The notes beneath the pieces were generated by a model. That model searched no databases. It worked only from the letters and a program-made list of their open reading frames with translations, and was not told the DNA's origin. This document shows positions 455 through 64,000 of a DNA stretch of 64,000 nt, one piece after another. The position numbers and the translations under genes are program-made. This stretch comes from Sphyrna mokarran (taxonomy: Eukaryota), in contig JAGIQG010000009.1 in the NCBI GenBank assembly GCA_024679065.1, forward strand, positions 107,446,001 to 107,510,000, given 5' to 3'. Within the stretch, counting starts at the first letter, position 1. Each line of letters starts with the position of its first letter.

Positions 455-742
455 TTTAACGTTAACTTAGAAGTGTCACAAGTAGACTTTCATTAATACT
501 GCAATGAAGTTACTGTGAAAATCCTGCAGTCGTCACACTCCTGCGCCTATTCGGGTACACCGAGGAAGGATTTAGCATGGCCAATGTACCTATCCAGCAT
601 ATCTTTTCAAGTGTGGGAGGAAACCGGGAGAAACGCACACACGCATCAATAGAACATGCAGCTTCCGCACCTCCAAGGCTAGAATCGAACCTGCGTCTCT
701 GGCACTGTGAGACAGCAGTGCAGTCACGTCGCCACCGTGCCT
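455..742 (-). mobile_element. tRNA-derived shark SINE (HE1-like head, variant tail)
   Basis: Head GGCACGGTGGC...CACTGCTGTCTCACAGTGCCAGAGAC...GGTTCGATTC with Pol III A/B boxes. Related copies: ~15740-16005(+), 24455-24745(+), 25533-25805(+), 30045-30315(-), 40941-41210(+), 49881-50180(+), 62950-63220(-), 63790-64000(-). Confidence 0.8.
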
Positions 743-1386: not shown

Positions 1387-1629
1387 TCATTGGCGTGCCG
1401 GGGCCCGAACCACCCCGTACACTACCGGTTCTTCCATCTGGTTTCGAGGTCTCACTGGCGCCTGATTCTTGTTCTTATCACGACTTTGCCTCACTACCGC
1501 GTACACAACCTCGTCTTCTCGTTGAGGCGGGGGTTCCACCTCATGATTGTTCGTGCGATTCCTCGGTCGCTGTGTTTTGGGTTTGGCGATGCGCAGGTCA
1601 GCATAAATAACATTGTTCGACGTGTCTCC
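1387..1629 (-). CDS. Gene A terminal cytoplasmic exon with three ITIMs
   Basis: VIYADL, VVYAVV and VVYGVV fit (I/V/L/S)xYxx(L/V); long polypyrimidine tract ending in a GAG acceptor; AATAAA on the minus strand at 897-902. Confidence 0.85.
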   Translation of the reverse strand, partial: GDTSNNVIYADLRIAKPKTQRPRNRTNNHEVEPPPQREDEVVYAVVRQSRDKNKNQAPVRPRNQMEEPVVYGVVRAPARQ

Positions 1630-16600: not shown

Positions 16601-16893
16601 AGACGCTTGGTAATTCCAGTACATTTTTCCCCCACCCTGGCTTGGACATATAGACCGATTGTACTGCTTAGAAACCCTGGAACACCTTCCTAAAACACAG
16701 TGTGTGTTCTTACATCAAAAAGAACTGTAGCAGCTTACGTTAACAGTTCACCAACAACTTCTCAAGGACAATTGGTCGACAATAAATGTTGTCCATTTCG
16801 GTGAAGCCCACTTCCCATTAACAAATGTAACAAGAAATGCAAGTAAGTTCAAGACTTACCAGAAATTAGCAGTACACCCGTAACTGGGTACAT
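1387..16893 (-). CDS. Gene A: NKp30/NCR3-like single V(J)-domain receptor, inhibitory type (3 ITIMs); join(16860-16893,13683-14024,6678-6806,4864-4895,1387-1629), ~259 aa
   Basis: GT-AG exons with compatible phases (1,1,1,0) total 780 nt in one open frame: MYPVTGVLLISAAAIA|DVNVTQSP...YYCELDTMRSGRGTGMGTRVTVK-GRAENKEEASTHKLITLPSTLVAITLVLLLIAILIFLSRSKGQ-DRTPTTRNEAQ-GDTSNNVIYADL...VVYAVV...VVYGVVRAPARQ*. The model requires skipping the stop-containing V exon at 10667-11008. Confidence 0.75.
1735..2450 (+). mobile_element. Solo LTR (TG...CA, 4-bp TSD GATG)
   Basis: TGTTGC...TATAACA termini, GATG at 1731-1734 and 2451-2454, internal TATAAAA (~1979) and AATAAA (~2268). Confidence 0.7.
2592..2962 (+). 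mobile_element. Ancient SINE, probably SacSINE1/Deu-domain type
   Basis: Core CCTTTTAGGGAAG.AAACCTGCCATCCTTA.CCGGTCT.G.CTACATGTGACT.CAGA.CCACAG recurs at ~27902-28306(+), 18425-18735(-), 43890-44225(-), 56140-56458(-) and 61806-62240(+); family name is from recall. Confidence 0.55.
3625..4000 (-). mobile_element. HE1-like SINE with CR1-type (ATTCTATG) tail
   Basis: tRNA head plus a GGCCTCCTT..CACTGTAG.GATTCTATGATT tail. Related copies: ~8890-9208, 11915-12222, 17780-18245, 23610-23860, 28990-29338, 37940-38250, 43383-43700, 48674-48925, 51925-52218, 55670-55932 (all -); 21305-21590, 32350-32650, 45795-46092, 60676-60965 (all +). Confidence 0.8.
4007..4700 (-). pseudogene. Rearranged U1 pseudogene paralog (pieces 4007-4077, 4621-4698; inverted 5' end 4606-4620)
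   Basis: Same U1 sequence as 29340-29499, split by an inverted CR1 fragment. Confidence 0.75.
4864..4895 (-). CDS. Gene A 32-nt cytoplasmic exon (DRTPTTRNEAQ)
   Basis: TTTTGCAG acceptor, CAG|GTAAGA donor; conserved at 32736-32767; supplies the phase 1-to-0 bridge the model needs. Confidence 0.78.
6678..6806 (-). CDS. Gene A stalk/uncharged transmembrane exon
   Basis: CCACAG acceptor, CAAG|GTAATT donor, 129 nt, phase 1-1; LITLPSTLVAITLVLLLIAILIFL has no charged residue. Confidence 0.85.
9420..9860 (-). mobile_element. Degraded L2-clade LINE 3' fragment (paralogs ~12420-12900, ~38440-38870, ~52420-52830)
   Basis: DFEIFIFVFKSLH resembles the L2 RT C-terminal motif (DFKILLLVFKSLHG). Confidence 0.55.
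10667..11008 (-). pseudogene. Duplicated V exon in gene A with in-frame stop
   Basis: 342 nt with intact splice sites, but TAA at 10800-10802 (GRVLLI*GQSSNGGHITV) and a degenerate G strand (GKESRRATRVTVK). Confidence 0.88.
13683..14024 (-). CDS. Gene A Ig V-set exon with germline-joined J-like G strand (NKp30-like)
   Basis: 342 nt, TTACAG acceptor, AAAG|GTGCAT donor; canonical Cys, WYKQ, DSGIYYC and GTGMGTRVTV motifs. Confidence 0.9.
14088..14877 (-). mobile_element. Young 5'-truncated CR1-clade LINE (RT C-terminus plus (TTCTATG)n tail)
   Basis: Uninterrupted ORF ...LYKTLVRPHLEYCVQFWSPHYKKDVEALERVQRRFTRM...; absent at the three paralogous sites; flanked by TGT/TGT. Confidence 0.93.
15188..15366. 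mobile_element. Degenerate hairpin (MITE-like, probably Penelope-derived); paralogs ~40400-40580 and ~54250-54425
   Basis: ATAAAAGCACAAATGCTGAATAAACTCAGCAGATCTGGCAGCATCT is imperfectly inverted to AGATGCGGCCAGACCTGCTCAGTTTATCCAGAGTTTTCTGTTTTTAT. Confidence 0.6.
16860..16893 (-). CDS. Gene A leader exon (MYPVTGVLLIS)
   Basis: ATG at 16893, phase-1 donor G|GTAAGT, upstream acceptor CATTCACAG at 16907; paralogs at 42450 and 54743. Confidence 0.85.
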
Positions 16894-24819: not shown

Positions 24820-25005
24820 TTACCTTGGGATGCCTGCCAGCCGTGCTAGCTTCTTCATGCTCTGAGTGAGAAGCTTAGGAGAACCTGGAAACTCGCAGCA
24901 ATATACAAGATATATCGTTATCATGATTAACACTGCAAAGCCTCACTCCCAACACAATCAGTTGCCTTTGCAGCGAACGTCCGGTGCCGTCGTGCTGCTC
25001 CCGGC
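24820..25005 (-). pseudogene. Orphan frameshifted copy of the activating TM exon
   Basis: Paralog of 50262-50455 (GREQHDGTGRSLQRQLIVLGVRL...) with an 8-nt deletion just after the TM Arg; it has no leader or V exon of its own. Confidence 0.8.
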
Positions 25006-26687: not shown

Positions 26688-26939
26688 TCATTGGCGTATC
26701 ATTGGGGCCCGAACTACCCCGTACACTACCGGTTCTTCCATCTGGTTTCGAGGTCTCACTGGCGTCTGATTCTTGTTCTTCTTATCACGACTTTGCCTGA
26801 CTACCGCGTACACAACCTCGCCTTCTCCTCGTTGAGGCGGGGGACCCGCGACATGATTGTTCGCGCGATTCTCCGGTCGCTGTGTTTTGGGTTTGGCGAT
26901 GTGCAGGTCAGCATAAATGACATTGTTCGACGTGTCTCC
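26688..26939 (-). CDS. Gene B terminal exon with three ITIMs
   Basis: VIYADL, VVYAVV and VVYGVV; indels relative to gene A preserve the frame; minus-strand AATAAA at 26189-26194. Confidence 0.85.
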   Translation of the reverse strand, partial: GDTSNNVIYADLHIAKPKTQRPENRANNHVAGPPPQRGEGEVVYAVVRQSRDKKNKNQTPVRPRNQMEEPVVYGVVRAPMIRQ

Positions 26940-29900
26940 CTCCAATGAAACAAAATTTAAAAAGAAAGAAACGGAAATGTTAACATTGCAGCTGCTTAGC
27001 ATAATAATGCGATTCCTGACCTAATGTAAAACTGCACGAAGGTATGTTGCGTAGTTGTGCTTAGAAGTTAGTGTGGCAAAAAAAAAAATGAACATGTGTA
27101 TGGAAAGGCCAAACAGGGTTACCAAGGCAACAGACTTTCAGGCGTTTGAATCTTTTTGAACTCGGCCAATCAATTTGAATCAGGCAATTAGAAACCAACA
27201 ACCTATTAAATTTAAGCCTGATGATTTTGGCAAGTTAGGACCAATCCCATTGAGAGGAATATTGATGTGTCATCACAAGGATAAAAGAAGACAGCAGACG
27301 GGCAAAAGACAGAGGTCAACTGCCGCCTGCTCCAATTCATAGCTCTTAGCTCAATTCTTCGTGTAGATAGTAAAGGTACCAAAGAAGAGAGAAGAATAGA
27401 CAGAGAAGGCCCAGAATTTTCCAAAATACACAAAAGGCGGTTCTAATTGAGAAGGCGACTAAAACTCTATTTCTGTTAATGATTGGAAATTGTATTTGAT
27501 GGAACAACATCCCATTAGAACTGTGTTTTATTCGGTTTGTTCATTATTTAGCTAACTTGTTCCGTGTTATTTGGATAATAAATTGTTACTTGCTAACTTT
27601 AGAGTGTAAGGGAGTTTTCTTGATTTAACTACTAGAGGTCGCTGAAGACCAGGTCACACCACTTTAGATTGACGTTGTACAGATTCAAAACATACTTCTC
27701 TTTGAGTGGTTAGGTGTTAATCCTCGGATCGAGGATAAACTTCTGCTTTATAATAAATACCTTTGCATCCATTGTTCTCCTGCGAAAGGCAGAACAGGAA
27801 TTCAGAAATAGCTTGTAATCTCAGCAATTAATATTGAAGTGAAATTCCTTTAAGTTTTCAACTTGCAGTTAAACCAGTTAGGTTTTTTGTTACTATTCTA
27901 ACGAGGCAGACAATGGTATTATCCTCAGATTATTAATACAAAACTACAGCTAATGTTTTGTAAATCCTGGTACAAATACCGTCATGGTAGATGGTGAATT
28001 TTGAATTCAATAAAAATATAACGGAATTAAGAATCTACAGATGACAATAAAATCATTATCAAATGTCCGAAGAAGCTATCTGGTTCATTCATGCCTTTTA
28101 GGGAAAGAAATCTGCCATCCTTACCCGGTCTGGTCTACATGTGTCTGCAGAGCCACAGTAATGTGGTTGACACTCAGCTCCCCTCAGCAAGCCACCCCAT
28201 TGTTCAAAAGGACAGCTCACCACCAGCTTCTCAACGGGAGTTTGAGGAGTGGGCAATAAATGCTGGCTGGCAAGAGAAGTCTATGACCCACGAATGAATT
28301 AAAAAATACCAGTAAGACAGGCCGAGAACGTTTTGGAATTTTTAGACCTTCACTTGGTTAGCCGTGAACGGATTTCTATTGGTTACAAGTGGTTTTAAAA
28401 GTACGTAGAAACCTCTGACAATTCTTTACTGATCCCAACCTCTCTTAAATGAGGCAATACATAACCTCTCAGAATTTTTTTGAGTTATCTGTCAGTGAGG
28501 TTAGGATTAGTTTTCTTGAAATAGGGTTAGCTCTTTCAAAAGAGAAGGGCATGCTAGCAGTGCTCATGTCCTGCAGCATCGCCCCTGCAGCGATTGGAGG
28601 TTGCGAAATGATTGTTAGAGCTGATATTCATCCCAACACCCATTAGAATCCAGATATACCTTTCCCCTAGGTCTGGAGATTCATCCACTTACAAGGACTT
28701 TAAGCAGGTTAGTATTTTCTCCCTTATTACATTTATCTTATCAAATATTTTAACTTTGTCTCTCTAATTACTTTGTCTGCTTTGTTCCTCTGAGGAAAAC
28801 AGGTGGAAAGTATTCACTAAGAGGCTTGTCCGCGTCACGTGCTTCTTTGGTGTATTTTAACTTTTTGATCTCTAATTCACCTTAATCGTTTCTTCATTGT
28901 CCATTTGTTCTTTGTGAATAGATGGAACATATTTCTAGATTTTCTAAATTATACTTGCCAATGTTTTCCCGGTTCCTTGTTTCCATAATGTTCATAGAAA
29001 TAATAGAATTCCTAAATGCAGAAGGAGGCCATTCGGCCCATCGAGTCTGTACCAACAAAAATCCCACCGAGGTCCTATCCCCATCACCCCACACATTTAT
29101 CCCACTAATCTCTCTAGACTTGGCTTCCCTTGACACTAAGGCTCAATTTAGCACGGACAATCAACATAACCCGCACATCTTTGAAATGTCGCAGGAAACC
29201 TGATCACACAGGGGAAACTCACGCAGACACGGAGGGGAAGGTGCAGATTGCACACCTTCAGTGACCCAAGCCAGGAATTAAACCCAGGCCCCTGGAGCTG
29301 TGATGCAGCCGTGCTAAACAACCGTGTCACAGTGCCGCCCCAAGAGCGTGCAAACGCAATCCCCACTACCAGAAATTTTGCAGTCGGGCATCCCGCATTT
29401 GGGGGCATCGCAGGCATCAGCACAACCGAAGTGCAATGGGCTAACTCGTCCTGGGCGAACCACTTGCTTGATCGTCGTTTCACCCCGTCAAGTAGGTATT
29501 TCATAATCATAGAGCTCAGAGTCAATAATGTAAGGAGACAGACATTAGGCCCATCGAGTCCATGCCTACTGTCTGTAGTGGCATCCAACCATTCCCAATC
29601 GTCCATTTAAACCCTGTAGGTTTATTCCCTTCGTGTTCCCATCTCATTTCCTTCTGAAATCCTTTAGCAGCTTTGCTGATATTTCCTTCCATCTACCTTA
29701 GAGATTGCGAGTTTCAGGTCATCATCACTCGCTGCATAAGGCAGTTCTGCATCATATCCCCTCTCCACTCTGCTGCTCGAAACCTTAAACATTCCTTGCA
29801 ACTTCAGTTGACAGGAACAGCCTTTATTTTCCTCCTTATCGAAACCTGGCAACTCATGTACACCTCTACCAAATAGTCCTCTTCGATCACAATTGACCGA

Positions 29901-32900
29901 AGGAGAACAACCCCAAATTTCCAGCCTAAACTTATAACTAAAACCGTTCAACCTTGGAATCATTCCGATAAATCTTCATCCCGCATTTCGAAATATCATT
30001 TCCGTTCTTGTAAACTATGATGACCAGAATTAGACACAATTACTACTTATTTATTTAGTATGACAGGTAGGCTTATATTAACACTACAATGAAGGTCCTC
30101 TGAGAATCCTCTCGTCGCCACACTCCTATGCTTGTTCGGATACACTGATGGAGAATTAAGCATGGCCAATGCACTTAACCAGTACATTTTTGGGACCGTG
30201 GAAGGAAACCCATGCAGACATAGGGAGAATATGCAAACACTGCACAAAGAGTAACCCAAGTTGGAAATTGAACCCGATGCTGTGAGGCAGCAGTGGTAGC
30301 CATTGTTTTACCATACTCATGCATAATCAGAATGCTATAAAACTTGACTTCCCTGTTTTCATATTCAGTGAAGCGACACAGGAAGGCAAAAGTCCGATTG
30401 CCTTATCAGTTTCCACTCAACTTTAACTACTTATACACGTAAACCTGCAATTCTCGTTTTTTATATTTAAAAATATTACACTTTCCATGCTCCTGTTTGA
30501 TTTGCACCGTTCTGGTTTATTGACATCTGAAATTTGCTTTTTTTTTGCTTCGTGTTGCTCTGCATGCAATGTGGTATATCAATTCAAATTAACTCCCTGT
30601 ATTCAACGTAAGTATTTGCAATACTCAATATTTTGTATGCCGTAACAACTGCCCAAGCAACATTTTACACTCCAATCAAACACCTTTAACCTATGTTCTT
30701 AAGAAATAGGAGCCGGAGTAGGCCATTCGTCCTCTCGAGACTGATGCACCATTCAATTAGATCATGATTGATCTACTTCAGTACAATTTTCCCGCACTAT
30801 CCCCACAGCCCTTCGTTGTTTCCAATATACAATCTCTAACCACACCTGCTGTGCACATACTGAATGATTGAGCCTCACATTATTCTGGGATAGAGAACTG
30901 CAAAGGTGCAGCACACTCAGAAGGGAGAAATTCCATCTCGTTTTAGCTGGGCATGCCTTTCTCCTTACTGTATGCCCCCTGAAATTGAACGATTTAGCTG
31001 TAGGCCTCTATTCAAATTTCTAACTGTAGAGCATGAACTCACACTTGCATCACATTCAATTCTATCTGCCCTGTATCCACAATCCACCAGTCCAATTATG
31101 TTCTCTTGAAATCTAACAACAATCTCCTTCCTGCTCATGATACCTTTTGTGCTGCAATTTTACCATCATCATCAGTTCATTTAAAATGAAGGTATCAAAT
31201 AACGATCAGAGTAATATGTGATTGCTGATTGAATATATTTGTTAATTTTGCTAAATAGAATACTCACAGGTGTGGCGATGCAGTGCCTTTAAGAAATGTA
31301 TTTCAATCATGTTTCTAGTAGCCAATGTTCTTTATTTCTGCTCGGGGAGATTAATAGACATTATGCTAATTTTAATCTGGACAAATGTAGTGTTTTGTGG
31401 TTTAGTGGTCCCTTGATTTGAGATTGATCGACAGTTTATATTAATTAGGAAAAGGAATGTTTCAGGAAAAAGTGCCATTTCAAATTTGTTTGAGTTGCTG
31501 CTAGAAAGAAGGCAATGTCTCTATCTCTGTCTCTCTCCAGGTGTTTGCTGAAAGTTCCAGGACTGAAAGCCTCAGAGATTTAATCCAACATTTAAAGGAC
31601 CAATTCACAGTCGGTATAAGAAGCTTGAAGTCCACTGATTTTATACCAAGTCTAGAGAAATGTTTATGTAGGTGGGATGATGTTTGACTTGAAACAATAT
31701 TGGTAGCTACTTGTAAAGATTCGTATTGTGTTGTGTTTAATTCGTACAATTGGTAAACCCTATTCCAAATCTTTTCATTATATTTTAACTGTGTAATTAA
31801 ACAAACTTTATTTGATAAAAGCTTCCTAGTGTGTCACTTGAATCACACCTCGGCAGAAATAAAGGGCACTGGTTGCAGACAACGCGGTCTCAATAAAATG
31901 CTACTAGGAAGGTGATTGAAATACATTTCTTAAAGGCACAGCATCATCACACTTGTGAGCATTTCATTTAGCAAAAATAGCACATGTATTCAATCTGTAA
32001 TCACATATTCCTCTGATTGCTATTTGATACCATTGTTTTCAACAAATTGATGACGAGGTAAAATTGCAGAACAAGAGGTGTCATGAGCAGGAAGGAGCTT
32101 GTTCTTAATATCTTATGCTCACCCCATGCCAAAATCAAAAGTAAAATTTAGGATCTGGGCTAACTTTATAAAATACTTCACAGTTTTTTGCCTGAGTCCT
32201 GATGTAAGAAAGAGACGTCATTCTGGGCAATATGGAGAGGACCTTACATTTTTCAGAATTAATGTTGTCTTAAAGTAGACTTATAATTCAGATGATTGGG
32301 CAATGGAGCTGTTAATCTGCTGTTTTGATGCAATACTTTCATGTATCAGCGGCATAGTGGCATGCACTGCTACCTCACAGTGCCAGGGGCACAAGTACGA
32401 TTGATGGCGTGGGTCACTGCCTGTGTGGCGTTTGCAAATTCTCCCCATGTCTGCACAGGTTTCCTCTGGGTGCTTCGGTTTCCTCCCACATTCCTAAGAT
32501 GTGCGGGTTAGGTGGATTGGCTATGCTAAATGTCAGGGGGAGTAGCCATGGCAAATGCATAGTGCTATGGGGAAACGGCGTATGTGGGATTGTGGTCGGT
32601 GCAGACTCAATGGGCCAAATAGCCTCCTTCTGTGCTATAGATTTCTATGCTGAGATTTCAACCCTCCATTCTAAAGCAAAAGTCTATTAAAAATTTAAAT
32701 CCTTATATAATTGTAATGTTGGACATTTGTCTTACCTGCGCATCATTTCGAGTTGTTGGTCTTCTATCTGTAAAACGTTTGAGATAAACATATCACTTTT
32801 ATGCGGCGAAGAAGGCAAGTGGAATGAAAAAAAATCAGTTCTTTTCCCGATGAATCAAGTAATCGCTCAATAATGATAGGAAGCCAAAATAAAGTTCTAC

Positions 32901-35900
32901 AGTCAGACCTGAATCCATACCTTTCACTGTGTAAGTGCATGTGAACTTTGGGCTAACTTGAGCACAATGCTGGAGTCCTGGAAATTTTACTAGTCTAGCA
33001 ATCCACAGACAGAGTTTATTACTCTGAGAATTTGAGTCCACATGTCAGTGTGGAATTTAAATTCAATTAATAAATAAATACTTAATTGAAAGCTTGTCTC
33101 AATAATGATAACCGTGAAATGATCGAATATGACAGAAAAACTCATCTGGTTTGATAATGTCTCTTAGGAATCGTTCTTAGTTAAAGTGGTCTTTTCACAC
33201 CAGACCCAGAGAAATGTATTTGACTCTACTGCCACCTGAAATGGTTCTCTACGCTATTCAGATGTTCCTAACCGCTGCCGGAAAGTTAATGAACTGCAGT
33301 CATTCACCACCGCCTTCACAAGGACAGTTAGGATGGGCGACATGCTGGCCTTAACAGCGACAGCCACATCCCGTGAAAGGAGATAACATAAAGGAGATAA
33401 AATATAATTGCAAGTGCATCCTGATGTTAAACATAACGCAATCAGTTACAATTTACTTCTTAGCTCTAAAGACATTATCGTGCTTTACAGTGCATGCCAT
33501 GCTAAAACTCGAAACAATTAAACTAGGAGTAGAAATAGGCCATTCCGCCCTTCGATCCTATTCCACAATTCAATATGACCATGGCTGGTCATCTACCTTA
33601 ATATTCCTGCTTCCTTCCTACACTTCTTTATCTTAGCTTCATGCATGTGAACCGGAGCACTGGTTGAGCTCTCATAAGTCGGTGCCCAAGCATACAGGAT
33701 AGTTGTCAACTCATTAATTGATGCCAATTTTGAAGATTGTCCTCAAAGTTAGCACTGCCGTCAGCTGCTGTAATATTCAGCGATGACTGACTGTCCTCTC
33801 TCGAAAATTTCTCAATGCTATCTGCCTTAGAAGTTGCGTGTTCACACCCCACTCCACAACTTCCAACACAAAATCTGACACTGCAAAATCTGATACTGCA
33901 TGTCCAGTATCGGACATGCTGAATTTGGGATGTGAGGTGAATTCAAGTCTAGGATGACTCTTTTTCCCCAAGATCTCTTAATATGAATATAAACGATCAC
34001 TGCCAACGGGCAGAGGAGTTACCACCATCGCTCCCCCACCATCAAACTCATCTCCCACTCCCATTCAATCCCACAGCCAATATTGATCACTGAGACAAAA
34101 GCCCATGGCCAAATTATCTGATTATTATCACATTCATGCATTTAAAGCCTGTCTTGTCGATCTCCCCACAGTACATTGTGCAAGATATAGATCTTGTGGC
34201 TAAAGGGACCAAGGGATATGGGGGGAGAGCGGGATCAGGATATTAATTTTGATGATCAGCCTTGATCAAAATGAATGGCAGAGCAGGTTCAGAAGGCCGA
34301 ATGGCCCACTTCTGCTTCCATTTTACTATTATGAAACTATTTCATTAGTTGTAAATCTCTCATCAATTCCAGAAATGCTCTACATGTGATCGTGTCGCCG
34401 ATATGGTCACAGGTCATTCGGCCCAAAAAGATGCAAGCTCTCTTTTTCTTTTGCTATTGCCGTTGCTTCATAGCACTCGCGCATCTCCATTCAAGGATGC
34501 TTTTAAACCCTAAATATAGCTGATCACTACTCACCACGATTGGACATGTATGAATTACTTTGACACTTGTTGCGGCTCAAGAAGATAAGAATTGCGATCA
34601 GGAGAAGCAGTATAGTGACCACCAACGCTGAAGACAAAGTGATCAATTTGTGCGTTGAAATTTCTTCCTTGCTCTCGACCTGACCTGGGGAATATGAAAG
34701 GACTATTAATAATAACATCCAGTTAGCTTTTCAATGAACTGAGCCACATATTTGGCTCATTGTAAAGTCACTTTTTAAAAAGTAAATTGTATGTTTTAAG
34801 TGTTTAGTTCCCCTTTCGATAACAATGTATTTGTTTAATTTGATTTGTCGTTGTCACATGTTTTGGGACACAGTGAAAAGTGTTGTTTCTTGCATGCCAC
34901 ATACCGTTCAGAGGGTGCACAGAGGAGAAGGAAAGGAGAGAGTCAGAGATAGTGCTACTGTCATAGCTAGGGTGTAGAGAAAGATCAGGTGCCCCTTTGT
35001 GTTCTGCCGAGTTATATAAAATTATATGAATGAATTTACCTATGAGCGTGTGTAGATGCAAGATGTAGATGTTATACCAACACAAAGCTCATCTTAATTC
35101 AATTAACTTTGCATATGCCTCTTAGCGAAGAAGCTGTGATACAGAATTTAAATTCATGCACTACAGTGGTTGCCCCACCTAACTTTAGATGAATAGATAT
35201 CTGTGCATTCATGTTTGCGTTTCAACACCAAGACAAAGTTTTACTATTTGTCGTAATCGGTTTGAAGTGGAACAGGAATTCACATAAACTTTGACCAGTC
35301 TGGACAGGAACAATGCTAAAAAAACGCATTTCTCTCATCTTGACTCGTGCCAATGAAGGAAACGAAGAAAATAGGATCAGTAAGAGTTGGCCATTCACTG
35401 CGGTGAGCCTGCCCTGCTATGAAGCAAAATAATGGCTGATTTTGTATCTCAATGCCTTATTCCAGTGCTCTCCCCATAGCCCTCACATCCTTACAGTCTT
35501 GAAATCTATCACCTTCCTAACTTTTCTCTATCTCCACTCACCTTCTGTTGTAAAGGGTTCCATGGATTTATCACTGTCTCAGCGAAGATACTTGTACTCA
35601 TCTCAGTCCTAAATGACCTATCCCAAATTATGAGGCTGAGATCTTGGTAGCCAGAAGAATTACCAAATTACCAGCCAGTCTGTCCAGCCATGACAAAATA
35701 TTGTGCACTTCAATGATAGTCCCTCTCACTCTTCTCAATTTCAGTCAATACGAACGCAGTTGACCAAATCTTTCCTCATACGACAATCTTGTCAACTCAA
35801 CAATCAGTCTGACGACTTTCACTGCATTCTCCCTAACGCAATTATATTGCTTCTTAAATAAGGACACACAAACTGCACACAATACTGCAAGTGTGGACTC

Positions 35901-38900
35901 ATTGAGGTAATGTAAAGTGGCAATACGACATCCTTGATCCTATCCTCAAAGCCTTTTGCAATGAAGGCCAACATGCCATTTGGCTTCCTAACCCGTTGCT
36001 GTACCTGCATGCTTGCTTTCAGTGAGTGGTGTAGTAGTCACCCAAGTCTCTTCGTGCATCAACGTTTGCCAATCTCTCATCTTTTAAATAATATTCTGTC
36101 ACTCTGTTTCTTCTTCTGAAATGAACAACTTCACATTTTCGCACGTAATAGTGCATTGGCCATACGTTTTCCAATTCACACAACTTGATTAATTCACCAC
36201 AAAGCCTCCTGAACATTCTCGTCACTACTCAACTTCCCACTACCCTTCTCTTCATCAACAAGTTATTGAAAAAAATGCATCCATTCCATTGATACATTGT
36301 GAATAGTTAGGGCCCATGTGTTGCTTCTATGAGACTAGCTACTGCCTGCTACTTCGAAAAAGACCCATTTATTCCTATTTTCTGTTTCCTTTCTGCTGAC
36401 AAATTGTCAACAATCCCGTTCCCCCCCAATCCAATATGTTTCAATTTTGTACACTGATACTCCTTGTGGGAATTTACTGGAAACCTTCAGAAAGTCCAAA
36501 TAGAATCATCCACTGGTTAAAACTTACCTATTCTACTAGTAATGTCCTCAGAATTTTTAGCTGAATTTTAAAATATAATTTCCTTTTCATAAATCCATAT
36601 TGACTTTGTCTAACCCCTTTTATATTCTCCAGCAGTTCTGTTATCTCCAGCATTTTCCCTGCTTCTTACCTTAAAGTAGCGTGTCTATTTTCTCCCACGC
36701 TCATTTTTTAAATAACAATGATACATGTAAGACTCTTCAATCTGCCAGGACCGTCCAGAATCTGCAGAATTTTGGTGATGACAACAAACACATGCATCAT
36801 TTCCATAGCCAGCACCTTTGTTATCCTAGCATGTAGATTATCTGGTTCTAAAGTTTTTTTTTGGTTTTCTGCCCTTTAATTGGTCTAACACTAATTTTCT
36901 GTTATTGCCATTTCCCTTAAATTCCTCCTTCTCACTACAATCTAGATGCTTCAGCATTTCTAGAAGTTTATTGTGTCTTCCCCCAGGAGATAAGAAAAAT
37001 GTACTTATTTGACTGCTCTGCTGTTTTTTTGTTCTCTACTATAAGTTCTACTCTTTCTGACTGTAAGGGACCTACATTTGTCTTCATTATTCTTCTTCAT
37101 TTTATATGCTTGCAGAAGTTTGAGTGACCACTTTTATGCTGTTTGTAGGTTTACTTTCATATTTTATTCCTCCTTAATCAAACTTGTGGACTTCTTTGCT
37201 GAATATTGATTTTTTTTCCTAATCCTCCAGCTTGCTACTTTTACTAGCAGAATTACAGGACTGCTGCTTGGATCTAACATTATCCTTAGCGGTGGCATAT
37301 TTTGGCCACTTTCCTTGTTTTCTTTTTACACCAGAAAGAAATATACAATGGGCGCAATGGATACCTTATTTCCTTAAGCATTAGCCAATGCCTAGCCACC
37401 ATCATGTTTTTAATGAAATTCCATAATCTATGGTAGCCAATTCATAGGAACGATAGAAATCATAGAATCCCTACAGTGCAGAAGGAAGCCATTCAGCCCA
37501 TTGAGTTTGCATAGGCCACAATTACACGCAGCCCCTATCCGTGTAGCTCCACTTATTTAGCCTGCCAGTCCTTCTGAAAGTGAAAGTCAGTTTAGCATGA
37601 CCAATGAAGCTAACCTGCACAATTTTCCATCTTAATGAAGAATTCTGTTATGTTACCGATACTGTTCTCTAAATGACCATACAAAAGAAAATGATTAATT
37701 AATCCATTGTCACTGTATAATTATAAATCTATGATAACAGGTTTCTTCGCTGCTTCCTAGTTGGACATACTGGTTAAAAAATACTCGTACGCACTCCAGG
37801 AATTCATAAGCCAAATTATTGTTATAATTTGCTTTGCCCAATCAATGCATTGATTATTTTACATTCATCCATGTGGTGTAGGCTTCCATCTCATTGCGCT
37901 TCTCTAATTGCCCTTCAATAGTGTAGCTTGCTGAATCATCTAGAATCATAGAATCCTACAGAAGGAGGCCATTCGGGCCATCCCGTCTGCACCGACCATA
38001 ATGCAACCCAGGCCCTCTCCCTTTAACCCATGCATTTGCCCTAGCTAGGCTCCCTGAGGCTAACGGGACATTTCCCACGGTCAATCCACCTAACTGGCAT
38101 GGGAGGACTATCGCAGGAAACCAAAGCACTCAAAGGAAACTCATGCAGACACTGAGAGAATGTGCAAACTCCACACAGACAGTGACCTAAGTTCGGAATC
38201 GAATCCGTGTCTCTGCGCTGAGAGGCAGCAGTGCCAATCACTATGTCACAGTCCTTTTAACAATTTTATACATTTTCTGTCCGCATATCGCATGGAATTA
38301 GAGAATGGAGTTCAGAAATCAATCAGCCATGATCAAATGGCAGCACAGATTCGAATGGTCAAATCCGCTCCTATGCCTTATGATAATGTGGCCGTCTACC
38401 TCAGATGTTGTAGGACCGCAATGGTCAACGTCGACAGTGAGGCCGAAAACCATGAAGGAACTTGAATACAAGAATGAAGCTTTCAAAATCCTCATCAAAG
38501 ACGGTCAATCAAATTTAATAACAATAGAATGAATGGTGAATGCGATTGTGACCAAATTAAGTTAGGAAACGAAATCTATTGGTAATGAATGCATAGCCGA
38601 AGATTTTCGCAGCACGGAGCCGAAGGTCGAATTAGAGCGTGAGATATAAGGCATGAGATATAATCTTCATAATAGTACGAAAGGATGGTCAGGAAACGAA
38701 TATGAGGTACAACAAGGCACACAAGTTGGGAAATGTCTGACTCAGTTTGAGAGAATTATCCCCAATTGAGAAAGTGGACCTGAAAGTGAGTTTGTGATGA
38801 AGACAGAAAGCGATGGCATCAACCTTTCAAATGTTCCATTGTCGAAAATATCTTGTCATCCAATTCCAGTAATTAGAAACAATTCGTTTGCATATATAAG

Positions 38901-41900
38901 GGGCGATGACATGCTGTTCGCACCCCACACACCACCTGGATGGAAAGATGACTGGCTTCACGGCGAACAACCCAACAGCCATAATGCATTGAAGGGCTCT
39001 TTAGTCAGGGCTGAGTATGCTACCCGTTCATCATTGTACCGGATACATTCAATTGCATTGGCCCTGAGCTCCATCAGTCCCGACAACGCCAGAAAGGCGT
39101 GAATCGCAGCTACCTTGATTTCAGATAGGCACCCAAACCCCAGTGCCTTCGGAGAAAGTAATTCCAAGGTCTTGGCCCAAAAGGGTTTGGTGGTGCTCGG
39201 GACAGGAGGTGCGTTGTGGGTTGTGGGGGGAGGGGGTGAGTGTGGGGATGTTGTTGAGTAGGTTGAATTTCAGAGGACGAGCGGGTAGGAAGTATATGGG
39301 TGCAATTGCAATCTGGAGGTCATCCCAGTATTTACCTTTAGTCCATTTCAGGATAAAAACCGGACTTTCGCTTCCTGCTCTTCCGCCCACGCCAAAAGCA
39401 CTTTGTCCAGAAACAAAGGTCAGGCAGTCTCACATGCAATTTGCACATTTAACTCTATACCCCATACTAATATAGAAACAACTTCAAAATAAATGTTTTA
39501 ATGAAGTGCAAGTTAAACAAATAATTAATATAAAACTGGATAAATGAGCGTTAATCTTCCTGGGTTCAAAATGAACATGTTCCTCATGACTATTATCTCA
39601 GAATTACAGTGTGGATATTGTGGGAATAATTAGTTTGATCGGTTATTGAAAAGAATAAATGTAAAGAAAGGCAGATGATAGCATATAGGAACGTACCTTT
39701 AACAATTACCCGTGTGCCCCTTCCAGTTTCTTTGCCAATTAAGAACAAAACGACTTCACAATAATACATCCCGGAATCATTCCGATTTGCCTCCATGACT
39801 GTAATTTGGCTGACTTTTAAAGATAGTTCAACTTTCTCCAAAATTCGGCCTTCAGATTTGTTCGAAACCAAATTCTCTTTTCGACCTGATACCTCCTTGT
39901 ACCAATGGAATGCAAAAACTGATGTCTTATTTGACTCAATAAATGTACAGGATATTTGAAATTTCCCTCCTTCTGTTGCTTCGATAATCTCTGGGCTTTG
40001 AATTACTTTGACGTCGGCAATAGCAGCAGCTGTAAAACAGAAATTCCAGTTATACTTGTTAGACAAACCTGCTCCTCTCCTCAAACAACTGTCTTGGCAC
40101 CTTGTCAATAATTCATTTGCGGCTCATAGCAAATTCAAACAACGAATCCCCACTTACATCCCTTGACCTTCAACAGGAAGATGAACATTGAATTTTCTAC
40201 CATGAATCATTTTAGTGTGAACAATTCTTTCTTCCCCTGCAACCTTTAAGCCTAAGCAATTTCATGGGATCAATATCACATCCAAATTCGCGTCTGAGTA
40301 TGTACATACTAGATATTGTCCATCTCTTTGATGTCTATTGAATCAGCCTGAGACTGTTAAAGGCTAATACAAGTACAGTACTGCGATTTCTGGAAATCTG
40401 ACATAAAAGCACAAATGCTGAATAAACTCAGCCGATCTGGCAGCATCTTTGGATAGGGAAGCAGGAGATAACGTTACAACTCCAACGACGCCTCCTACAA
40501 TGGACTAGAAACGCCAACTGTGTCGATTACCACAGATGCGGCCAAAACTTCTCATTTTATCCAGAGTTTTCTGTTTTTATTTGTGTTACAGGCCAATGTT
40601 AAAGGCCCTGTTCACAGATATCTTCCGCCACTTCTCTAGTCATTTGAAGTGGTGTTGAAGATGTTAGGAACAGCACCAGCAACACTGAACGTCAGGTGCC
40701 AAGCTGGTGTCGATACAGCATATGCAAGCTAAACGATAGAACAGCGTGTTATGAATACTGATCTATCCAAAACTAACGGATCACATACAGCCCCTGCAGA
40801 GTTGCCCCAACTACTCGTGAATGGTTGTGGGTTATTAAATTATTAATAGGAGGAGGAAGAGGTCCCCCATCCTCAATAACGGGGAATTTGGCGCATCAGT
40901 GCGAAAGAAAGGACAGAAGCTTTTGTAACCATCTTTAATCGGGCAGCACGGTAGGACAGGGTTAGCATTGCTGTTTCACAGCGCTAGGACCCCCGGGTTG
41001 GATCCCTGGTTTGGGACACTCTCTGTCTGGTGTCTGCACATTCTCCCCGCATCTGCGTGGGCTTCTCCGGGGGCTCTGGTTTTCTCCCGTGGTCTGAAAG
41101 GCTTGTTAGAATTATTGACCTGAACAGTTGCCGGACAGTGCCGACTAGTGGAATTTCACAGTAACTTCATTGCAGTGTTAATGTACATGTGACTAACAAA
41201 TAAATAAACTTCAATGAGCTGTTGAGAGCGGATGATCCATCCCGGCTTGTTTCTCACGTTCACGAAATCAGAGATTTTGCTTCAAATTACTCGATTCACT
41301 TCACATAACAAGAAGTTGATGAAAGCCTGCGTATGGCACAAGATGTGGGACCTAATCACATTCAGACAGCATTTCTGTTGGTTTGTGTTCCAGAACTGAT
41401 CATTCTACAAGAACACGGGAACCGTGAGCGGGAGTAGGCCGCTCGACTTCTTTAACCTTCTCCATCATTCAATAATATCATGGCTAATCTAAGTGTGAAC
41501 AGCACGTTACTGTCTGTCCATCGTATCCCGTGACTCACTCGGTGATCAACAGTGTGTCAAAATGAGCCTCAAACACGACAATGACACATATTCTGGACGG
41601 TAGAATTTCTCAGATAAAAGTGGTGGTGCGAGGACAGCTCTCGGATGTTGATTCATGGGTTGCCTGGTACTTCATGTCGTAAATGAGTGCTTTATCTGGA
41701 CCATCTGAAGGGCACCATGACAGCTCAGTGACTATCGCTGTAGCTGTGCAGACACTTGGAATTGGGCCGGTGTCTGCGGGAGTTTGCGCGTTCTCCCCGT
41801 GGTTGCGTGGGTTTTCTCCGGGCGCTCCGGTTTCCTCCCACATCCCAAAAATTCGCTCTTAAGCTGATTGAAAAACAAATTGTCCCTATATTGAGATTCT

Positions 41901-42483
41901 TCCATATTAGAAATAACCTAAAATTAAAATAGGAAATGGAATTGTCACTATAAAGTTATGACGGCGGCGCGGGCTCGTTGGGCCGAAGGGCCTGTTTCCC
42001 GTGCTGTGTTGCTCTTTGAAAAGGCCCCTTGAGAGAAAATAATGTTCCCCTAACTCAGAATCGTAGAATCCCAATAGTGCAGAGAAGACTATTTGGCCAT
42101 CCAGTCTACACGGACTGTCTGCAGAGCATTTTACCCTGTTCTCCGCCCCATTCCTGTAAACCCTCACATTTCCCTTGACTAATTCATTCTTAAAAGAAAA
42201 GAGCATCAGGCGCCCGGTAAATGCCCTTTATTTCCCCACCTTTGTTTGAACACATACACCCATTGTGCTGCTTTGAAACCCTGGAACACCTTTCTAGCAA
42301 CACACTGGGCATTCCTATACTACAAAGAACCGCAGCAGCTTAAGACACCAGTCCACCAACATCTTCTCAAGGACAATTGGTATACAATAAATGATGGCCC
42401 TTTTGGTGAAGGGCCATTAACAAGAAATGTAACTAAGTTTAAGACTTACCAGAAATTAGCAGTATACCTATAACTGGACACAT
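26688..42483 (-). CDS. Gene B: NKp30/NCR3-like V(J)-domain receptor, inhibitory type (3 ITIMs); join(42450-42483,39697-40029,34535-34684,32736-32767,26688-26939), ~266 aa
   Basis: Exons total 801 nt in one open frame, all GT-AG: MCPVIGILLISAAAIA|DVKVIQSP...YYCEVVLFLIGKETGRGTRVIVK-GQVESKEE...LIAILIFLSRNKCQSNSYMSNR-DRRPTTRNDAQ-GDTSNNVIYADL...VVYAVV...VVYGVVRAPMIRQ*. Confidence 0.82.
27045..27755 (+). mobile_element. Solo LTR, paralog of 1735-2450
   Basis: Collinear similarity at the same intronic position in gene B; TSD decayed. Confidence 0.65.
29340..29499 (-). pseudogene. U1 snRNA pseudogene (near full length)
   Basis: The reverse complement ATACCTACTTGACGGGG...GATCA...CCATTGCACTTCGG.TGTGCTGA...CCCCAAATGCGGGA...CGACTGCAAAATTTCTGGTAGTGGGGATTGCGTT is collinear with vertebrate U1; the 5' splice-site-pairing end is mutated. 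Confidence 0.88.
29510..30045 (-). mobile_element. Degraded CR1 3' fragment (inverted copy at 4078-4600)
   Basis: Residual RT C-terminus (MIPRLNGFSYKFRLE) and a CR1-type 3' UTR. Confidence 0.65.
31116..32103. repeat. ~190-bp inverted duplication (31116-31309 vs 31913-32103) overlapping an LTR-like element
   Basis: For example AGTGCCTTTAAGAAATGTATTTCAATCA vs TGATTGAAATACATTTCTTAAAGGCACA, and CTCCTTCCTGCTCATGA vs TCATGAGCAGGAAGGAG. Confidence 0.8.
32736..32767 (-). CDS. Gene B 32-nt cytoplasmic exon (DRRPTTRNDAQ)
   Basis: TTTTACAG acceptor and CAG|GTAAGA donor; paralog of 4864-4895. Confidence 0.78.
34535..34684 (-). CDS. Gene B stalk/uncharged TM exon
   Basis: CCCCAG acceptor and G|GTGAGT donor (weaker alternative A|GTAATT at 34559); hydrophobic LITLSSALVVTILLLLIAILIFL. 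Confidence 0.83.
35360..37440 (-). mobile_element. Old degraded CR1-type LINE (partial paralogs ~7440-8380 and ~51120-51440)
   Basis: Broken ORFs such as NGMLAFIAKGFE...PHLQYCVQF and KCEVVHF are typical of CR1 RT. Confidence 0.75.
39697..40029 (-). CDS. Gene B Ig V-set (VJ) exon
   Basis: 333 nt (9-nt in-frame deletion relative to paralogs); open frame and canonical V motifs. Confidence 0.9.
42450..42483 (-). CDS. Gene B leader exon (MCPVIGILLIS)
   Basis: 34 coding nt, G|GTAAGT donor, paralogous to 16860-16893. Confidence 0.85.
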
Positions 42484-48230: not shown

Positions 48231-50261
48231 ATTGGCTTATTGAATAAACATTCTGGCACTGTTTCCGATGTATGGTGAAGAAAAAATGAATTAACCATAA
48301 TCCACAACAAAGCTTCAGACAAACATCACAAAGCCTGTCTAAGATAATAAAAGTTACCAATAGTGACGTGCAAACATCCTTACTTTATCGAATAGAAGAA
48401 AAGGTTCATCTGAACTATGTGTTTTATTTTAAAGTCCACAGTTCCTACATTGCCAGATTGAATTCATTCAGGTTTCATTCTTTGATTGTAATGAAAGAGT
48501 CTGTGACAATAATCGGTCATTTCCCTTTAAACGGATCTACTTTAAAAAGATATATGTGGCAATATTCGTTACAATTAGAATTTTACATATGGTCCAGTTA
48601 CAATCAGTTTTATATTGTTTAGTTTTGATTTAAGCTAGATTTTTTCTCTGGTGCATATGCGTTACCAGATCTTTAGAATCATAGAAACCCTCCAGCATTC
48701 TGCCCATCTGCATCGACTCTCTGAAAGAGCATCTCACCATGGCCCAATCCCCATAAACCTGAGTATTTGCCAATCCATCCACGTAACATCCACATCTATG
48801 CACACTGCGTGGTAATTTAGCATGACCAATCAACCTAACCTCTACATTTTTGGACTGTGGGGCGATAGCGTGCAAACTCCAGACTGTCACCCAAATTCGG
48901 ATGGCCAGCGTGCCACCGTGCTACCATGTCAGCATGTCTTTGATAAGTCAAAATGACAAGAGGTAGGGAGTGACAAGCTCAATTATTACGAGGTGATGAT
49001 CCCGTATCGAATCGCATCATGAAACATGGTGGCAATACATAAAAGGTTAGCTACAAAATACCATTTGCGTCAAAGGTGTTGTCAAATCTCATTGTTGGTT
49101 AATGATAGAAGGGCCCCTGTTGTTCATAGCCTAAGTCGAATCTCATGTAAGTTTCCTTCACTTGCAGGGTGAGCGTGCAAAGTGGAGTAAATTCAATGAT
49201 CAACAGCAAAGTTAACAACAAATACTTAGAGAAAAGGACAAGAAAAGTCGAAAATAAATTCATGTTTCATTCTCTGCGATGACGAGTCATGCTTTGTTAA
49301 GTTAGAATTCTCCTTGCTTTTCCCAGTAAACTGAATAATCATCAAATAAGCATCCCCCCTTCCTGTATTGCAGGCTAACATCGGAATTTGAACTATAGAG
49401 CTGCATACGTTATATATTTCATAGCACATATTTACATTTAATGATAATGAAGGAGAAAATATAACAATTGTTCGCTAATAATGAGTGTTAGATCGTACAC
49501 TTATGCTTTTATGTGTTTTTTGTTCTTATATGATTGACATTATCTGACTCTTGTCATCTTTTCCTGTCTTCGATGGGGGAAAAATACGACATGGTGTAAG
49601 AGCGTTTACAAGTATCAATGTCAATTTTTTTTCTCTGCAATTAGGAGATAAAATTACTTAAAGTGGAACCTGGGACATATGAAATTGTCAATGACTGCGC
49701 CATCTAATGGACTTTGTACAATAACGCAGAATACAATGTTTTATTAGTAAACCATTTAAAGATATAAAGGGTTGGGGGGGGGCAGCGGGAGAGCTAATGA
49801 AGGGCATATGATCGTACCCGAACACACGTGATATTGGCATACATGCTTCTTTCCGTTTGCATTTAACACCTAGAGCCTTGGGCAGCATAGTGGCCCAGTA
49901 GTTAGCACTGCTACCTCACACAGCCAGGGACCCGAGTTTGATTCCTGGCTCGGGTCACTGTCTGTATGGAGCTTTCACGTGCTCCCCGTGTCTGCGTGGG
50001 CTTCCTCTGGGTGTTCCAGTTTCCTGTGACAGAATGAAAGACGTGCTGGTCTGGGGCATTGGCCATGCTAAATTTTCCCAGAATGTACCCGACCAGGCAC
50101 TGGAGAATGGCGACCTATGGATTTTCACAGTGACTTCAGTGTAATGGTGATCCTACTTGAGGCGCTAATAACTAAACTAAAAAAAAAACACTTCTGCAGT
50201 CACTTTATAATCAACTGCAAATACAATTTGTCCAAAATGTCAATCGGTTTAGTTTAACTTT

Positions 50262-50455
50262 TTACCATGAGATGCTGCCAGCTGTGGTACCTTCTTCACG
50301 CTCTGCAGCGAGAAGCTTCGGAGAACCTCGAAACTCGCAGCAATATACGAGAGATATCGTTATTATGATTAACGCAGCAAACACTGCAAGCCTCACTCCC
50401 ATCGCAATCAGCTGCCTTTGCAGCGAATATCTCGTGTTATCCGGTTGCTCCCATC
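50262..50455 (-). CDS. Gene C stalk/TM(Arg)/short tail exon
   Basis: TTCTCTACAG acceptor, phase 1 matching the V donor, hydrophobic helix with one Arg, TAA at 50262-50264, minus-strand AATAAA at 49740-49745. Confidence 0.8.
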
Positions 50456-53400: not shown

Positions 53401-54776
53401 CTAATATAGAAATAACTTTGAATTATATGCTTTAATGGTGTACAAGTTAAACAAATAATTAATATAGAAATGGATAAATGAGCGTTAATCTTGATGGATT
53501 CAAAATGAACACTTTCCTCGTGACTTCTTTCTCAGAACTATATAGTGAATATTTTAGGAATAATTAGTTTGATCTGTTATTGAAAAGAAAAAGTTTAAAG
53601 AAAGGCAGATGGTAGCATATAGAAACGTACCTTTAACAGTTACCCGTGTGCCCCTTCCAGTTCCTTTGCCAATTAAGAACAAAACGACTTCACAATAATA
53701 CATCCCGGAATCATTCCGATTTGCCTCCATGATTGTAATTTGGCTGTATTTTAAAGATGGTTCACGTTTCTCCAAAACTCGGCCTACAAATCTTTCAGAT
53801 TTGTTCAAAAACAAATTCTCTTTCCGACCTGATACCTCCTTGTACCAGTAGAATACAAAAACTGATATCTTGTTTGACGCAGTAAATGTACAGGAGATTT
53901 GAAATTTCCCTCCTTCTGTTGCTTCGATAATCTCTGGGCTTTGAATTACTTTGACGTCGGCAATAGCAGCAGCTGTAATACAGAAATTCCAGTTATACTT
54001 GTTAGACAAACCTGCTCCTCTCCTCAAACTATTGTCCTGGCACCTTGCCAATAATTCATCTGCAAATTCATTCAAAGAATCCCTACGACCATCCCTTGAT
54101 CTTCAGTAGGAAGATGACCACTGAATTTTCAATTTGAACCATTTTGGTGTGAACAATTCCTTCTTCCCCTGCAGCCTTTAACCCCGAGCAATTTTCTGAG
54201 ACTGTTAAAAGGCAATACAAGTACAATACTGCGATTTCTGGAAATCCGACATTAAAACACAAATGCTGAATAAAAATCCGGCAGCGTCTCTGGAGAGGGA
54301 AACAGGAGTTAACGTTACCAGGAGTCCAACGACGTCTCCGACAATGGACTGGAAACGATAGATGTATCGATAACCACAGATGTGGCTAGATCTGCTCACT
54401 TTAGCCAGAGTCTTCTGTTTTTATTTGTGTTAACAGCCAATGTTAAACTCCTCCGGGCACTTCTCTAATCGTTTCATAAGAAGTGGTATTGCACACGTTA
54501 CGAGCAGCACCAGGCAACACTAAGTATCAAGTGACGACCTGGTGTCGATACAAACATGCAAACTAAACGATAAAAGCAACATGTTATCAATACTGATCTA
54601 TCCAAAACTAACAGATCACATCTAACCTCTGCACAGTTGCCCCAACAACTTCTCAAGGACAATTAGTATGTTGTCCTTTTTGGTGAAGTCCACTTCCCAT
54701 TAATAAATGTAACAAGAAATACAACTAAGTTTCAAGACTTACCAGAAATTAGCAATATACTCATAACTGGATACAT
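50262..54776 (-). CDS. NCR3: Gene C: NKp30/NCR3-like activating-type receptor (TM arginine, short tail without ITIM); join(54743-54776,53631-53972,50262-50455), ~189 aa
   Basis: 570 nt open frame: MYPVMSILLISAAAIA|DVKVIQSP...YYCEVVLFLIGKGTGRGTRVTVK-GWEQPDNTRYSLQRQLIAMGVRLAVFAALIIITISLVYCCEFRGSPKLLAAEREEGTTAGSISW*. The single VJ domain, short stalk, N-terminal TM Arg and short tail match mammalian NKp30 architecture. The symbol denotes family, not proven orthology. Confidence 0.78.
50740..51115 (+). mobile_element. Penelope-like element fragment (GIY-YIG remnant)
   Basis: 51021-51113 translates as VDIGGTKQ*LGDGFVEHFWIICKQDPDLLVA, similar to the YIGETKRRLGDRFAEHL region of PLE endonucleases; partial paralog ~25300-25530. 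Confidence 0.6.
53631..53972 (-). CDS. Gene C Ig V-set (VJ) exon
   Basis: 342 nt, open frame, DSGMYYC...GKGTGRGTRVTV. Confidence 0.9.
54743..54776 (-). CDS. Gene C leader exon (MYPVMSILLIS)
   Basis: 34 coding nt, G|GTAAGT donor, paralogous to the other leaders. Confidence 0.85.
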
Positions 54777-63309: not shown

Positions 63310-64000
63310 GAGAACCTTCTAGCAGGAAATGAACTTGTATTCAATAAATATTAAATTTTCCTTCAAACAAATCATAGCAGGATTGTCTCTGCACACTTTA
63401 CCAGATCCACGTCGCAGTTACGATGTGTTTTCGTCAAAGAAGGAAACTCCGTTTACGGGGATGGGGATAGTAGGGGATGGAGGAGATGGAGGTTGTTACC
63501 TACCCGCCAATCCCCAAGCTCAGTGTCATACAGAGAACAGATAGATTGAATTTACACCTAAATGTCTAGTCTGGCATCTCAAAATGGCAATTTATGCGTC
63601 ATTTAGTTTTTTGGCAAGATATACCTGTGAAGTAAATGCAGGGTCTTCAAATTGTTCAACCTCTCAGTATGCTTGTGTGGTAAAACACGCGGGTGAAGAT
63701 TGTTTCTGGAGGATTTTTGTAGTAGTGGGGTGCGTGGGATGTGGAAGCAGCAGAGACAGCAACATCTAGCTTTCTGCAATAATGCTAAATGTTTACTTAG
63801 TCATGTCACAAGAAGACTTACATTAATACTGCAATGAAGTTACTGTGAAGAATCCCCCAGCCGTCACACTCCTGCTCCTGTTCGGGTATACTGAGGGAGA
63901 ATTTAGCACGGCCAATGCAACGCGTCTTTAGAACTGTGGGAGGAAAGCGGGGAAAACACATGCAGGTACGAAGAGAAAGTGCAGACTCCGCACATCCCAG
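63310..64000. repeat. Paralog of window positions 1-680 (3' flank of an inhibitory-type gene)
   Basis: AACTTGTATTCAATAAATATT...TGTGTGGTAAAACACGCGGGTGAAGATTGTTT and the following SINE are collinear with 1-680. Confidence 0.9.

Follow-up and report, generated by a model that had tools for sequence, protein, structure and literature searches.

An activating-type transmembrane exon probably completes an NCR3-like gene in a putative paired-receptor cluster of Sphyrna mokarran

The exon at 50455-50262 is a real transmembrane (TM) exon of gene C, a member of a tandem cluster of V-domain genes in Sphyrna mokarran. We consider it likely that this exon completes gene C as the activating member of an elasmobranch NCR3 (NKp30) paired-receptor cluster, which would signal through an ITAM adaptor and whose V exon would recently have undergone gene conversion with that of gene B. 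The core of an initial annotation of this DNA, namely that the exon belongs to gene C, is of activating type and is distinct from the inhibitory TM exons, holds, with ‘activating’ being read from the anatomy of the predicted protein.

Results

A tandem cluster of NCR3-like genes

The window, by which we mean the whole 64-kb stretch that was analyzed, is eukaryotic DNA with a G+C content of ~41%. A minus-strand tandem cluster of single-V-domain genes is the only cluster recognized in it. Comparison of the window with itself revealed four V exons and duplicated blocks at 74-82% identity, and three genes (C, B and A) were resolved using the closest shark proteins as guides:

54743..54776, minus strand: gene C leader coding exon (11 codons plus 1 nt, 34 nt), aligning with the N-terminus of the Mustelus asterias homolog P0003
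53631..53972, minus strand: gene C V exon (342 nt), a single-exon VJ-type V domain, NCR3/NKp30-like
50262..50455, minus strand: activating-type stalk, TM and short-tail exon of gene C (194 nt, phase 1, 63 aa plus stop)
26688..42483, minus strand: gene B, inhibitory type (258 aa), with leader 42483-42450, V 40029-39697 and TM 34684-34559
32767-32736 and 26939-26688, minus strand: gene B 3' exons, the latter a tail with three ITIM-like motifs
1387..16893, minus strand: gene A, inhibitory type (259 aa), with leader 16893-16860, V 14024-13683 and TM 6806-6678
4895-4864 and 1629-1387, minus strand: gene A 3' exons, the latter a tail with three ITIM-like motifs

The closest proteins to the gene C V domain are the inhibitory NCR3-like proteins of Mustelus asterias (XP_078075389.1, 63% identity) and Scyliorhinus canicula (XP_038670994.1, 53%), the two matches among 157 candidates. 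Genes A and B, the TM exons of which are uncharged, align with both proteins along TM and tail. Unlike gene C, the two proteins have an uncharged TM and a tail with tyrosine motifs, and they show no clear homology to the activating exon.

As an acceptor sits 13 nt upstream of the gene C leader ATG, a non-coding first exon further upstream is suggested. Leader-like ATG stretches ending at a donor-like site were observed at 56782-56856 (minus strand) and 19083-19127 (minus strand), the gene C copy containing an in-frame stop. Because leader exons begin at an acceptor, these stretches may represent the non-coding first exon. The ATG at 56856 was ruled out as the gene C leader by the in-frame stop and a wrong phase; the leader at 54776 matches the homologs. 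A ~0.9-kb block with the putative first exon (56494-57417 in C) is absent from gene B (44262-44279), and gene B may use another promoter, be silent or be reached from the promoter of gene C. The two ends of the window (7-677 and 63317-64000, partly repeat) match at 80%, hinting at a further inhibitory gene upstream of gene C and a further activating gene downstream of gene A.

Gene A contains an extra V at 10667-11008 (minus strand) without a leader, with one in-frame stop and with an altered G-strand motif, which arose when V and intron were duplicated in tandem (8374-11071 corresponds to 11422-14087). The V exon of gene B (39697-40029, minus strand) carries an in-frame 9-nt deletion compared to the other three V exons. 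A 235-aa frame at 14193-14900 (minus strand), which we take to resemble the end of a LINE reverse transcriptase, is inserted in the leader-V intron of gene A.

The gene C V domain is a Pfam V-set domain (E 1e-13). One exon holds both cysteines and the Gly-x-Gly-Thr strand, as in a non-rearranging V with a J-like G strand, and an exact-consensus scan found no recombination signals. A profile of 27 relatives identified NKp30 as the best single-domain match in the PDB (E 9e-25 and 91 bits, compared to 65 bits for the single-domain match ranked next), with only two four-domain diabodies ranking above it. Using the V model (pLDDT 88), NKp30 structures ranked 1-2 by Foldseek, with a less than 3-fold E-value margin over antibody and TCR domains; NKp30 was not ranked first in a single-sequence PDB search. 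In a 25-row tree without mammalian NKp30 and without a non-NCR3 outgroup, in which 5 of 22 branches were well supported, the gene C V domain grouped with shark NCR3-like proteins (97/95), and carriers of a charged TM fell in several V branches beside inhibitory forms. Gene C is probably best filed under the NCR3 family, judging by its sequence.

The activating-type exon of gene C

Joining of the three coding exons of gene C (34 + 342 + 194 = 570 nt) gives a protein of 189 aa with a single terminal stop, and all splice sites are canonical (GT at both donors, AG at both acceptors). This intact model bears out where the initial annotation had placed the exon as well as its strand, phase and content: the predicted Arg-bearing helix, the YCC and the 24-aa tail are all present in the sequence. 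The basic residue of the helix is encoded here:

50391..50393, minus strand: Arg codon (Arg147) within the TM helix

Six uncharged residues precede Arg147 and 18 follow it, and it lies 22 residues past the G-strand motif. AlphaFold2, run with a 9-sequence alignment, predicted one continuous helix at exon residues 7-42 (pLDDT 90-97 in residues 11-40) followed by a low-confidence tail. The Val-Arg codons (50391-50399, minus strand) also read as a consensus-like cryptic donor within the exon, which a Lys codon at this place would weaken.

The acceptor of the exon had been described as strong. It does contain 12 pyrimidines at the 16 positions from -20 to -5, the same count as both inhibitory TM acceptors and more than the three scored V acceptors (10-11), but it is not uniquely strong, as 8 of 126 candidate YAG acceptors have more. 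These candidates were taken from 53630-43000 and read in the phase of the V exon, and among them the exon ranked top for hydropathy (best 19-residue Kyte-Doolittle mean 2.56; next 1.97), being the only strongly hydrophobic in-frame candidate. Across the whole window, a value of at least 2.5 was reached by 5 of 1182 acceptor-phase combinations: the exon, three from both inhibitory TM exons and one on the plus strand that looks like chance. The exon had been described as missed by the ORF track. Its first in-frame ATG yields only 46 aa (the stop-to-stop frame has 77 aa), so a start-codon ORF list would skip it.

The probability that the frame of the exon stays open under neutral drift is ~0.11. 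Because the open frame and the poly(A) signal described below are weak alone, it is the phase, the hydropathy and the homology to other species that carry the case for the exon. A Pfam search with the exon returned no real match (a single one below threshold, E 0.49). A weak tblastn match at 12963-12904 was attributed to chance after alignment at the DNA level.

We also compared the exon with the inhibitory TM exons, to which it had been said to be unrelated. DNA similarity was lacking (scores of 15 and 16, reached by 56% and 40% of 300 shuffles), and protein scores were 28-29 compared to 48-80 for the six homologs described below, arguing against a common origin. Against 13 other post-V segments the exon obtained protein scores of 20-39; several inhibitory segments beat their own shuffles, as any two hydrophobic runs do. 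The activating and inhibitory TM exons may nevertheless share a very remote kinship.

Homologs in other elasmobranchs

A V-domain search over 1.84 billion representatives gave 284 proteins at E <= 0.001, 150 of which were listed. The exon was searched against 153 proteins, i.e. these 150 V relatives and three further proteins, and matched six of them with E-values from 2e-6 to 0.002 (the next was 0.016 among the matches listed):

QTT61904.1: exon homolog, nurse shark NCR3
XP_072329400.1: exon homolog, Scyliorhinus torazame
XP_072892294.1 and XP_072920818.1: exon homologs, Hemitrygon akajei
XP_059827209.1: exon homolog, Hypanus sabinus
XP_078271940.1: exon homolog, Rhinoraja longicauda

Five of the six are predicted gene models. 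Absence of a conserved reading frame in other sharks had been named as an observation that would speak against the exon; instead, all six homologs carry the matching segment directly after an NCR3-like V. Each has a basic residue at the aligned position, which is Lys in all six where gene C and its dead paralog (see below) have Arg. The pattern common to the exon and its homologs, Ser-Leu-x-x-Gln-Leu...basic-Leu-x-x-Phe, is full in most and partial in Rhinoraja. In five of six homologs the basic residue lies 21-22 residues past the G-strand motif, and 15-21 uncharged residues follow it in five of six. The S. torazame model departs from the pattern four residues after the Lys, and its helix is incomplete as annotated. 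A word-indexed search with the exon alone against longer proteins scored none of 49 candidates, and one with the V domain against proteins of similar length scored none of 7.

The split of sharks and rays dates back over 250 million years. As the same TM type follows the V domain in sharks and in rays, the activating exon type, judged from these alignments, predates this split and is an old separate exon lineage rather than a recent point mutant of the inhibitory TM. GenBank already contains this exon type within the nurse shark NCR3 entry (QTT61904.1). The worry that gene C would be taken for a truncated pseudogene if the exon were overlooked proved realistic, as a 133-aa Scyliorhinus canicula model (P0009) ends just after the V. 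NCR3-like proteins of Heterodontus (P0087) and Huso (P0113) have an Arg 24 and 26 residues from the V within a TM that is not clearly homologous to the exon; the Heterodontus protein also has a long tyrosine-bearing tail.

A dead copy of the exon and the history of the locus

The window contains a second copy of the exon:

24820..25005, minus strand: frameshifted orphan copy, identical to the activating exon at 156/185 positions and lacking 8 nt immediately behind the Arg codon

This copy lies downstream of the last exon of gene B without a V of its own. In a transcript joining it to a V, the helix would be lost and translation would end after 42 further codons. Because of the location of this copy downstream of gene B, an activating-exon block precedes A as well as B. 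The exon and its dead paralog are 84% identical compared to 82% in the flanks, with a dN/dS of 0.68 on 59 codons, and purifying selection on the exon was not significant in this in-window pair.

We wondered whether gene C itself might be silent or decaying, its exon having once been functional like the twin at 25 kb and being open by chance. The neutral survival probability given above, the lack of excess conservation over the flanks and the presence of other dead parts in the cluster (the extra V with a stop, the orphan exon) fit such a scenario. We nevertheless judge it unlikely, since no damage is seen in leader, V, TM or any of the four splice sites, since it is the other copy that has the gap at both decisive indels, and since the exon keeps a motif that it shares with rays.

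The V-TM intron of gene C matches the introns of the inhibitory genes as far as 51139 and, from 50976 on, the flank of the dead paralog. The repeat unit of the cluster was probably an activating plus an inhibitory gene, and the activating gene between B and A would have lost its 5' half. Introns at ~80% identity between C and the two inhibitory genes contrast with much older TM types, and the activating and inhibitory types presumably therefore exchanged the 5' half at least once before the putative recent V conversion described below.

Tail and 3' end of gene C

Three features bear on the end of the gene:

50337..50345, minus strand: Tyr-Cys-Cys where the helix meets the cytoplasm, retained by the dead paralog and absent from all six other-species homologs
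50260..50268, minus strand: weak donor-like site over the stop codon (GT at 50265-50264)
49740..49745, minus strand: first AATAAA after the stop, also found in the flank of the dead paralog

The YCC had been proposed as a palmitoylation site, which finds no support in conservation: none of the six homologs has YCC and two have a single juxtamembrane Cys. The AATAAA is present where it had been reported, and the chance of finding one within 520 nt of a stop here is ~37%. If the exon is terminal, the gene C tail comprises 24 aa without a tyrosine or a signaling motif.

The exon may, however, not be terminal. The donor-like site over the stop could join it to a further cytoplasmic exon, in which case tail, signaling and 3' end would differ from the 189-aa model. 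This site is nearer to consensus in the dead copy, two ray models diverge past a common stretch beyond the helix, and human NKp30 is reported to have three tails derived from alternative exon 4 (PMC12272517). On the other hand, the site has neither a G at +5 nor a T at +6, sliding identity between both exon copies did not single out any conserved exon further downstream, and three homologs stop 17-38 residues past the basic residue with an intact helix. We hence regard an internal exon as improbable and favor the terminal exon of the 189-aa model.

Near-identity of the V exons of genes C and B

Genes C and B adjoin, and their predicted ectodomains are near-identical while their signaling anatomy is opposite. 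The identity is concentrated in one segment:

53651..54020, minus strand: putative gene-conversion tract between activating C and inhibitory B, the best identity segment (permutation p 0.0005)

The V exons of C and B are identical at 313/333 positions (94%), compared to 79-84% in the other five V pairs, and encode the same residue in 96 of 110 codons. The downstream intron is identical at only 1704/2153 positions (79%; Fisher p 1e-12 against the V exon). Sites informative in a four-way comparison were distributed 21:1:0 in favor of C+B in the exon but 32:30:31 in the intron (p 9e-8). In each of the three flanking segments, the sites that B has in common with A outnumber those in common with C (100 vs 88, 44 vs 20 and 218 vs 181), which is reversed in the V exon (3 vs 53). 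The tree joined the C and B V domains with a support of 100/99 on a stem of 0.32.

Exon-limited conversion would be the simplest reading of these patterns, by which the V exon of gene C was recently made near-identical to that of gene B, in either direction. As the exons would have become near-identical in this way, B and C probably bind the same or overlapping ligands with opposite outputs.

Could shared selection or parallel change have produced the same similarity? Almost all uniting C-B sites (20 of 21) lie in codons with a differing amino acid, codon 95 only partly. At fourfold-degenerate sites, each of the six V pairs shows few differences (1-3 of 29-38), so that C-B is not singled out at synonymous sites. 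Such selection would, however, have to generate ~21 identical nucleotide states in one exon of two genes whose introns show no special kinship, and the closest outside homolog (Mustelus) mostly has A-type states. We thus give this explanation little credence and favor conversion. The permutation test also flagged an intronic B-A2 segment (p 0.0015). The other V pairs have dN/dS values of up to 2.7 (C-A 2.68), which suggests diversifying selection on the V exons, where low dS from older conversion could inflate the ratio. Furthermore, conservation is unusually high in the ~60 nt of intron that precede each of the four V exons (53973-54030, minus strand, and paralogs), which suggests that a splicing element lies there or that conversion tracts are shared.

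Adaptor usage

As its tail has no tyrosine, gene C would need a partner to signal; the predicted protein has no signaling motif of its own. We infer that Arg147 would pair within the membrane with the aspartate pair of an ITAM dimer of the FcR-gamma/CD3-zeta type and that ligand binding would activate the cell via this adaptor. In mammals, partners of FcR-gamma are reported to have an Arg in the N-terminal TM segment and partners of DAP12 a more central Lys, the basic residue of the latter being at positions 7-12 of the hydrophobic run; swapping of the residue strongly reduces assembly (PMC1440944). As expected for FcR-gamma/CD3-zeta coupling, the Arg of gene C lies towards the N-terminal end of a type I TM helix and, conditional on a terminal exon, the tail is short and free of signaling motifs. 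Gene C lacks the central TM Lys of DAP12 partners, having an Arg with 18 uncharged residues after it. By analogy, this geometry favors an adaptor of the FcR-gamma/CD3-zeta type for gene C and its homologs.

It is less likely, yet conceivable, that the receptor is expressed and acts by another route, be it DAP12 or DAP10, charge-independent FcR-gamma binding, or no adaptor at all as a decoy. All six homologs have Lys, and the residue occupies position 7 when counting begins with the hydrophobic run, inside the DAP12 range of 7-12 (PMC1440944). A Lys-bearing catfish receptor is reported to bind FcR-gamma with the charge being dispensable (PMC4810170); mammalian charge rules may accordingly fail in fish, and a Lys-to-Arg change need not switch adaptors. 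Contrary to a DAP12 route, the 15-21 uncharged residues after the basic residue in gene C and five of six homologs place it in the outer part of the helix, and Lys-to-Arg is reported to have cut DAP12 assembly of KIR to 15% (PMC1440944). We therefore keep FcR-gamma/CD3-zeta-type pairing as the preferred proposal.

Discussion

Among known proteins, nurse shark NCR3 (QTT61904.1) resembles gene C in its leader-V-TM layout, in a TM with 56% identity over 32 residues and in a basic residue 22 residues past the G-strand motif. It differs by having Lys instead of Arg, and its deposited sequence stops at the helix, with neither YCC nor tail. Its V domain is 39% identical to that of gene C and falls in another branch of the tree. 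Kinlein et al. reportedly described eight MHC-linked shark NCR3 subtypes in 2021, and forms of both the activating and the inhibitory type may already be among them. PMC12227049 lists the records MT914154-914161 for nurse shark NCR3. A relationship between NCR3 and the pre-RAG antigen receptor has been discussed (PMC12227049, PMC10751288); in PMC10751288, NKp30 is mentioned as an MHC-linked VJ gene. We found no paper on V-exon conversion or on the Lys/Arg difference in shark NCR3, in a search that did not cover key shark NCR3 papers.

To our knowledge, human NKp30 is a single-copy gene with no ITIM twin. Its V domain is only 26-28% identical to that of gene C. Like gene C, it has a single VJ-type V and an Arg in the outer TM half, through which it is reported to pair with CD3-zeta/FcR-gamma (PMC6514059, PMC13107469); its tail variants stem from alternative exon 4 (PMC12272517). 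The CEACAM pairs of Xenopus and human resemble B/C in that activating and inhibitory genes are linked and ligand-binding exons are adjusted by conversion (PMC5112662). However, they belong to a different family, and activating CEACAMs bear an ITAM-like motif of their own whereas gene C would need an adaptor.

We speculate, with more doubt than confidence, that elasmobranch NKp30 is a pathogen-driven paired-receptor system in which an old activating TM module is repeatedly re-armed with the ligand-binding parts of inhibitory neighbors, and that mammalian NKp30 is the remnant of an ancient paired family. A first re-arming would have occurred on the scale of promoter, leader, V and intron, where gene C remains ~80% identical to the inhibitory genes until a breakpoint near 51139-50976 is reached, and a second one would be the recent conversion of the V exon alone. 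The Lys of the module would have changed to a mammal-like Arg in the Sphyrna mokarran lineage, possibly retuning adaptor choice.

NCR3 is among the few natural-killer receptor genes that can be traced from sharks to humans. It is important to annotate the activating copy correctly, given that automatic models can end right behind the V. The paired-receptor conversion signature is the most interesting addition to this known family: an activating gene whose V exon tracks that of an adjacent ITIM gene is a signature of pathogen-hijacked receptors. B and C represent a testable pair for finding the ligand, and the Lys/Arg difference makes a natural test case for the validity of mammalian adaptor rules in sharks.
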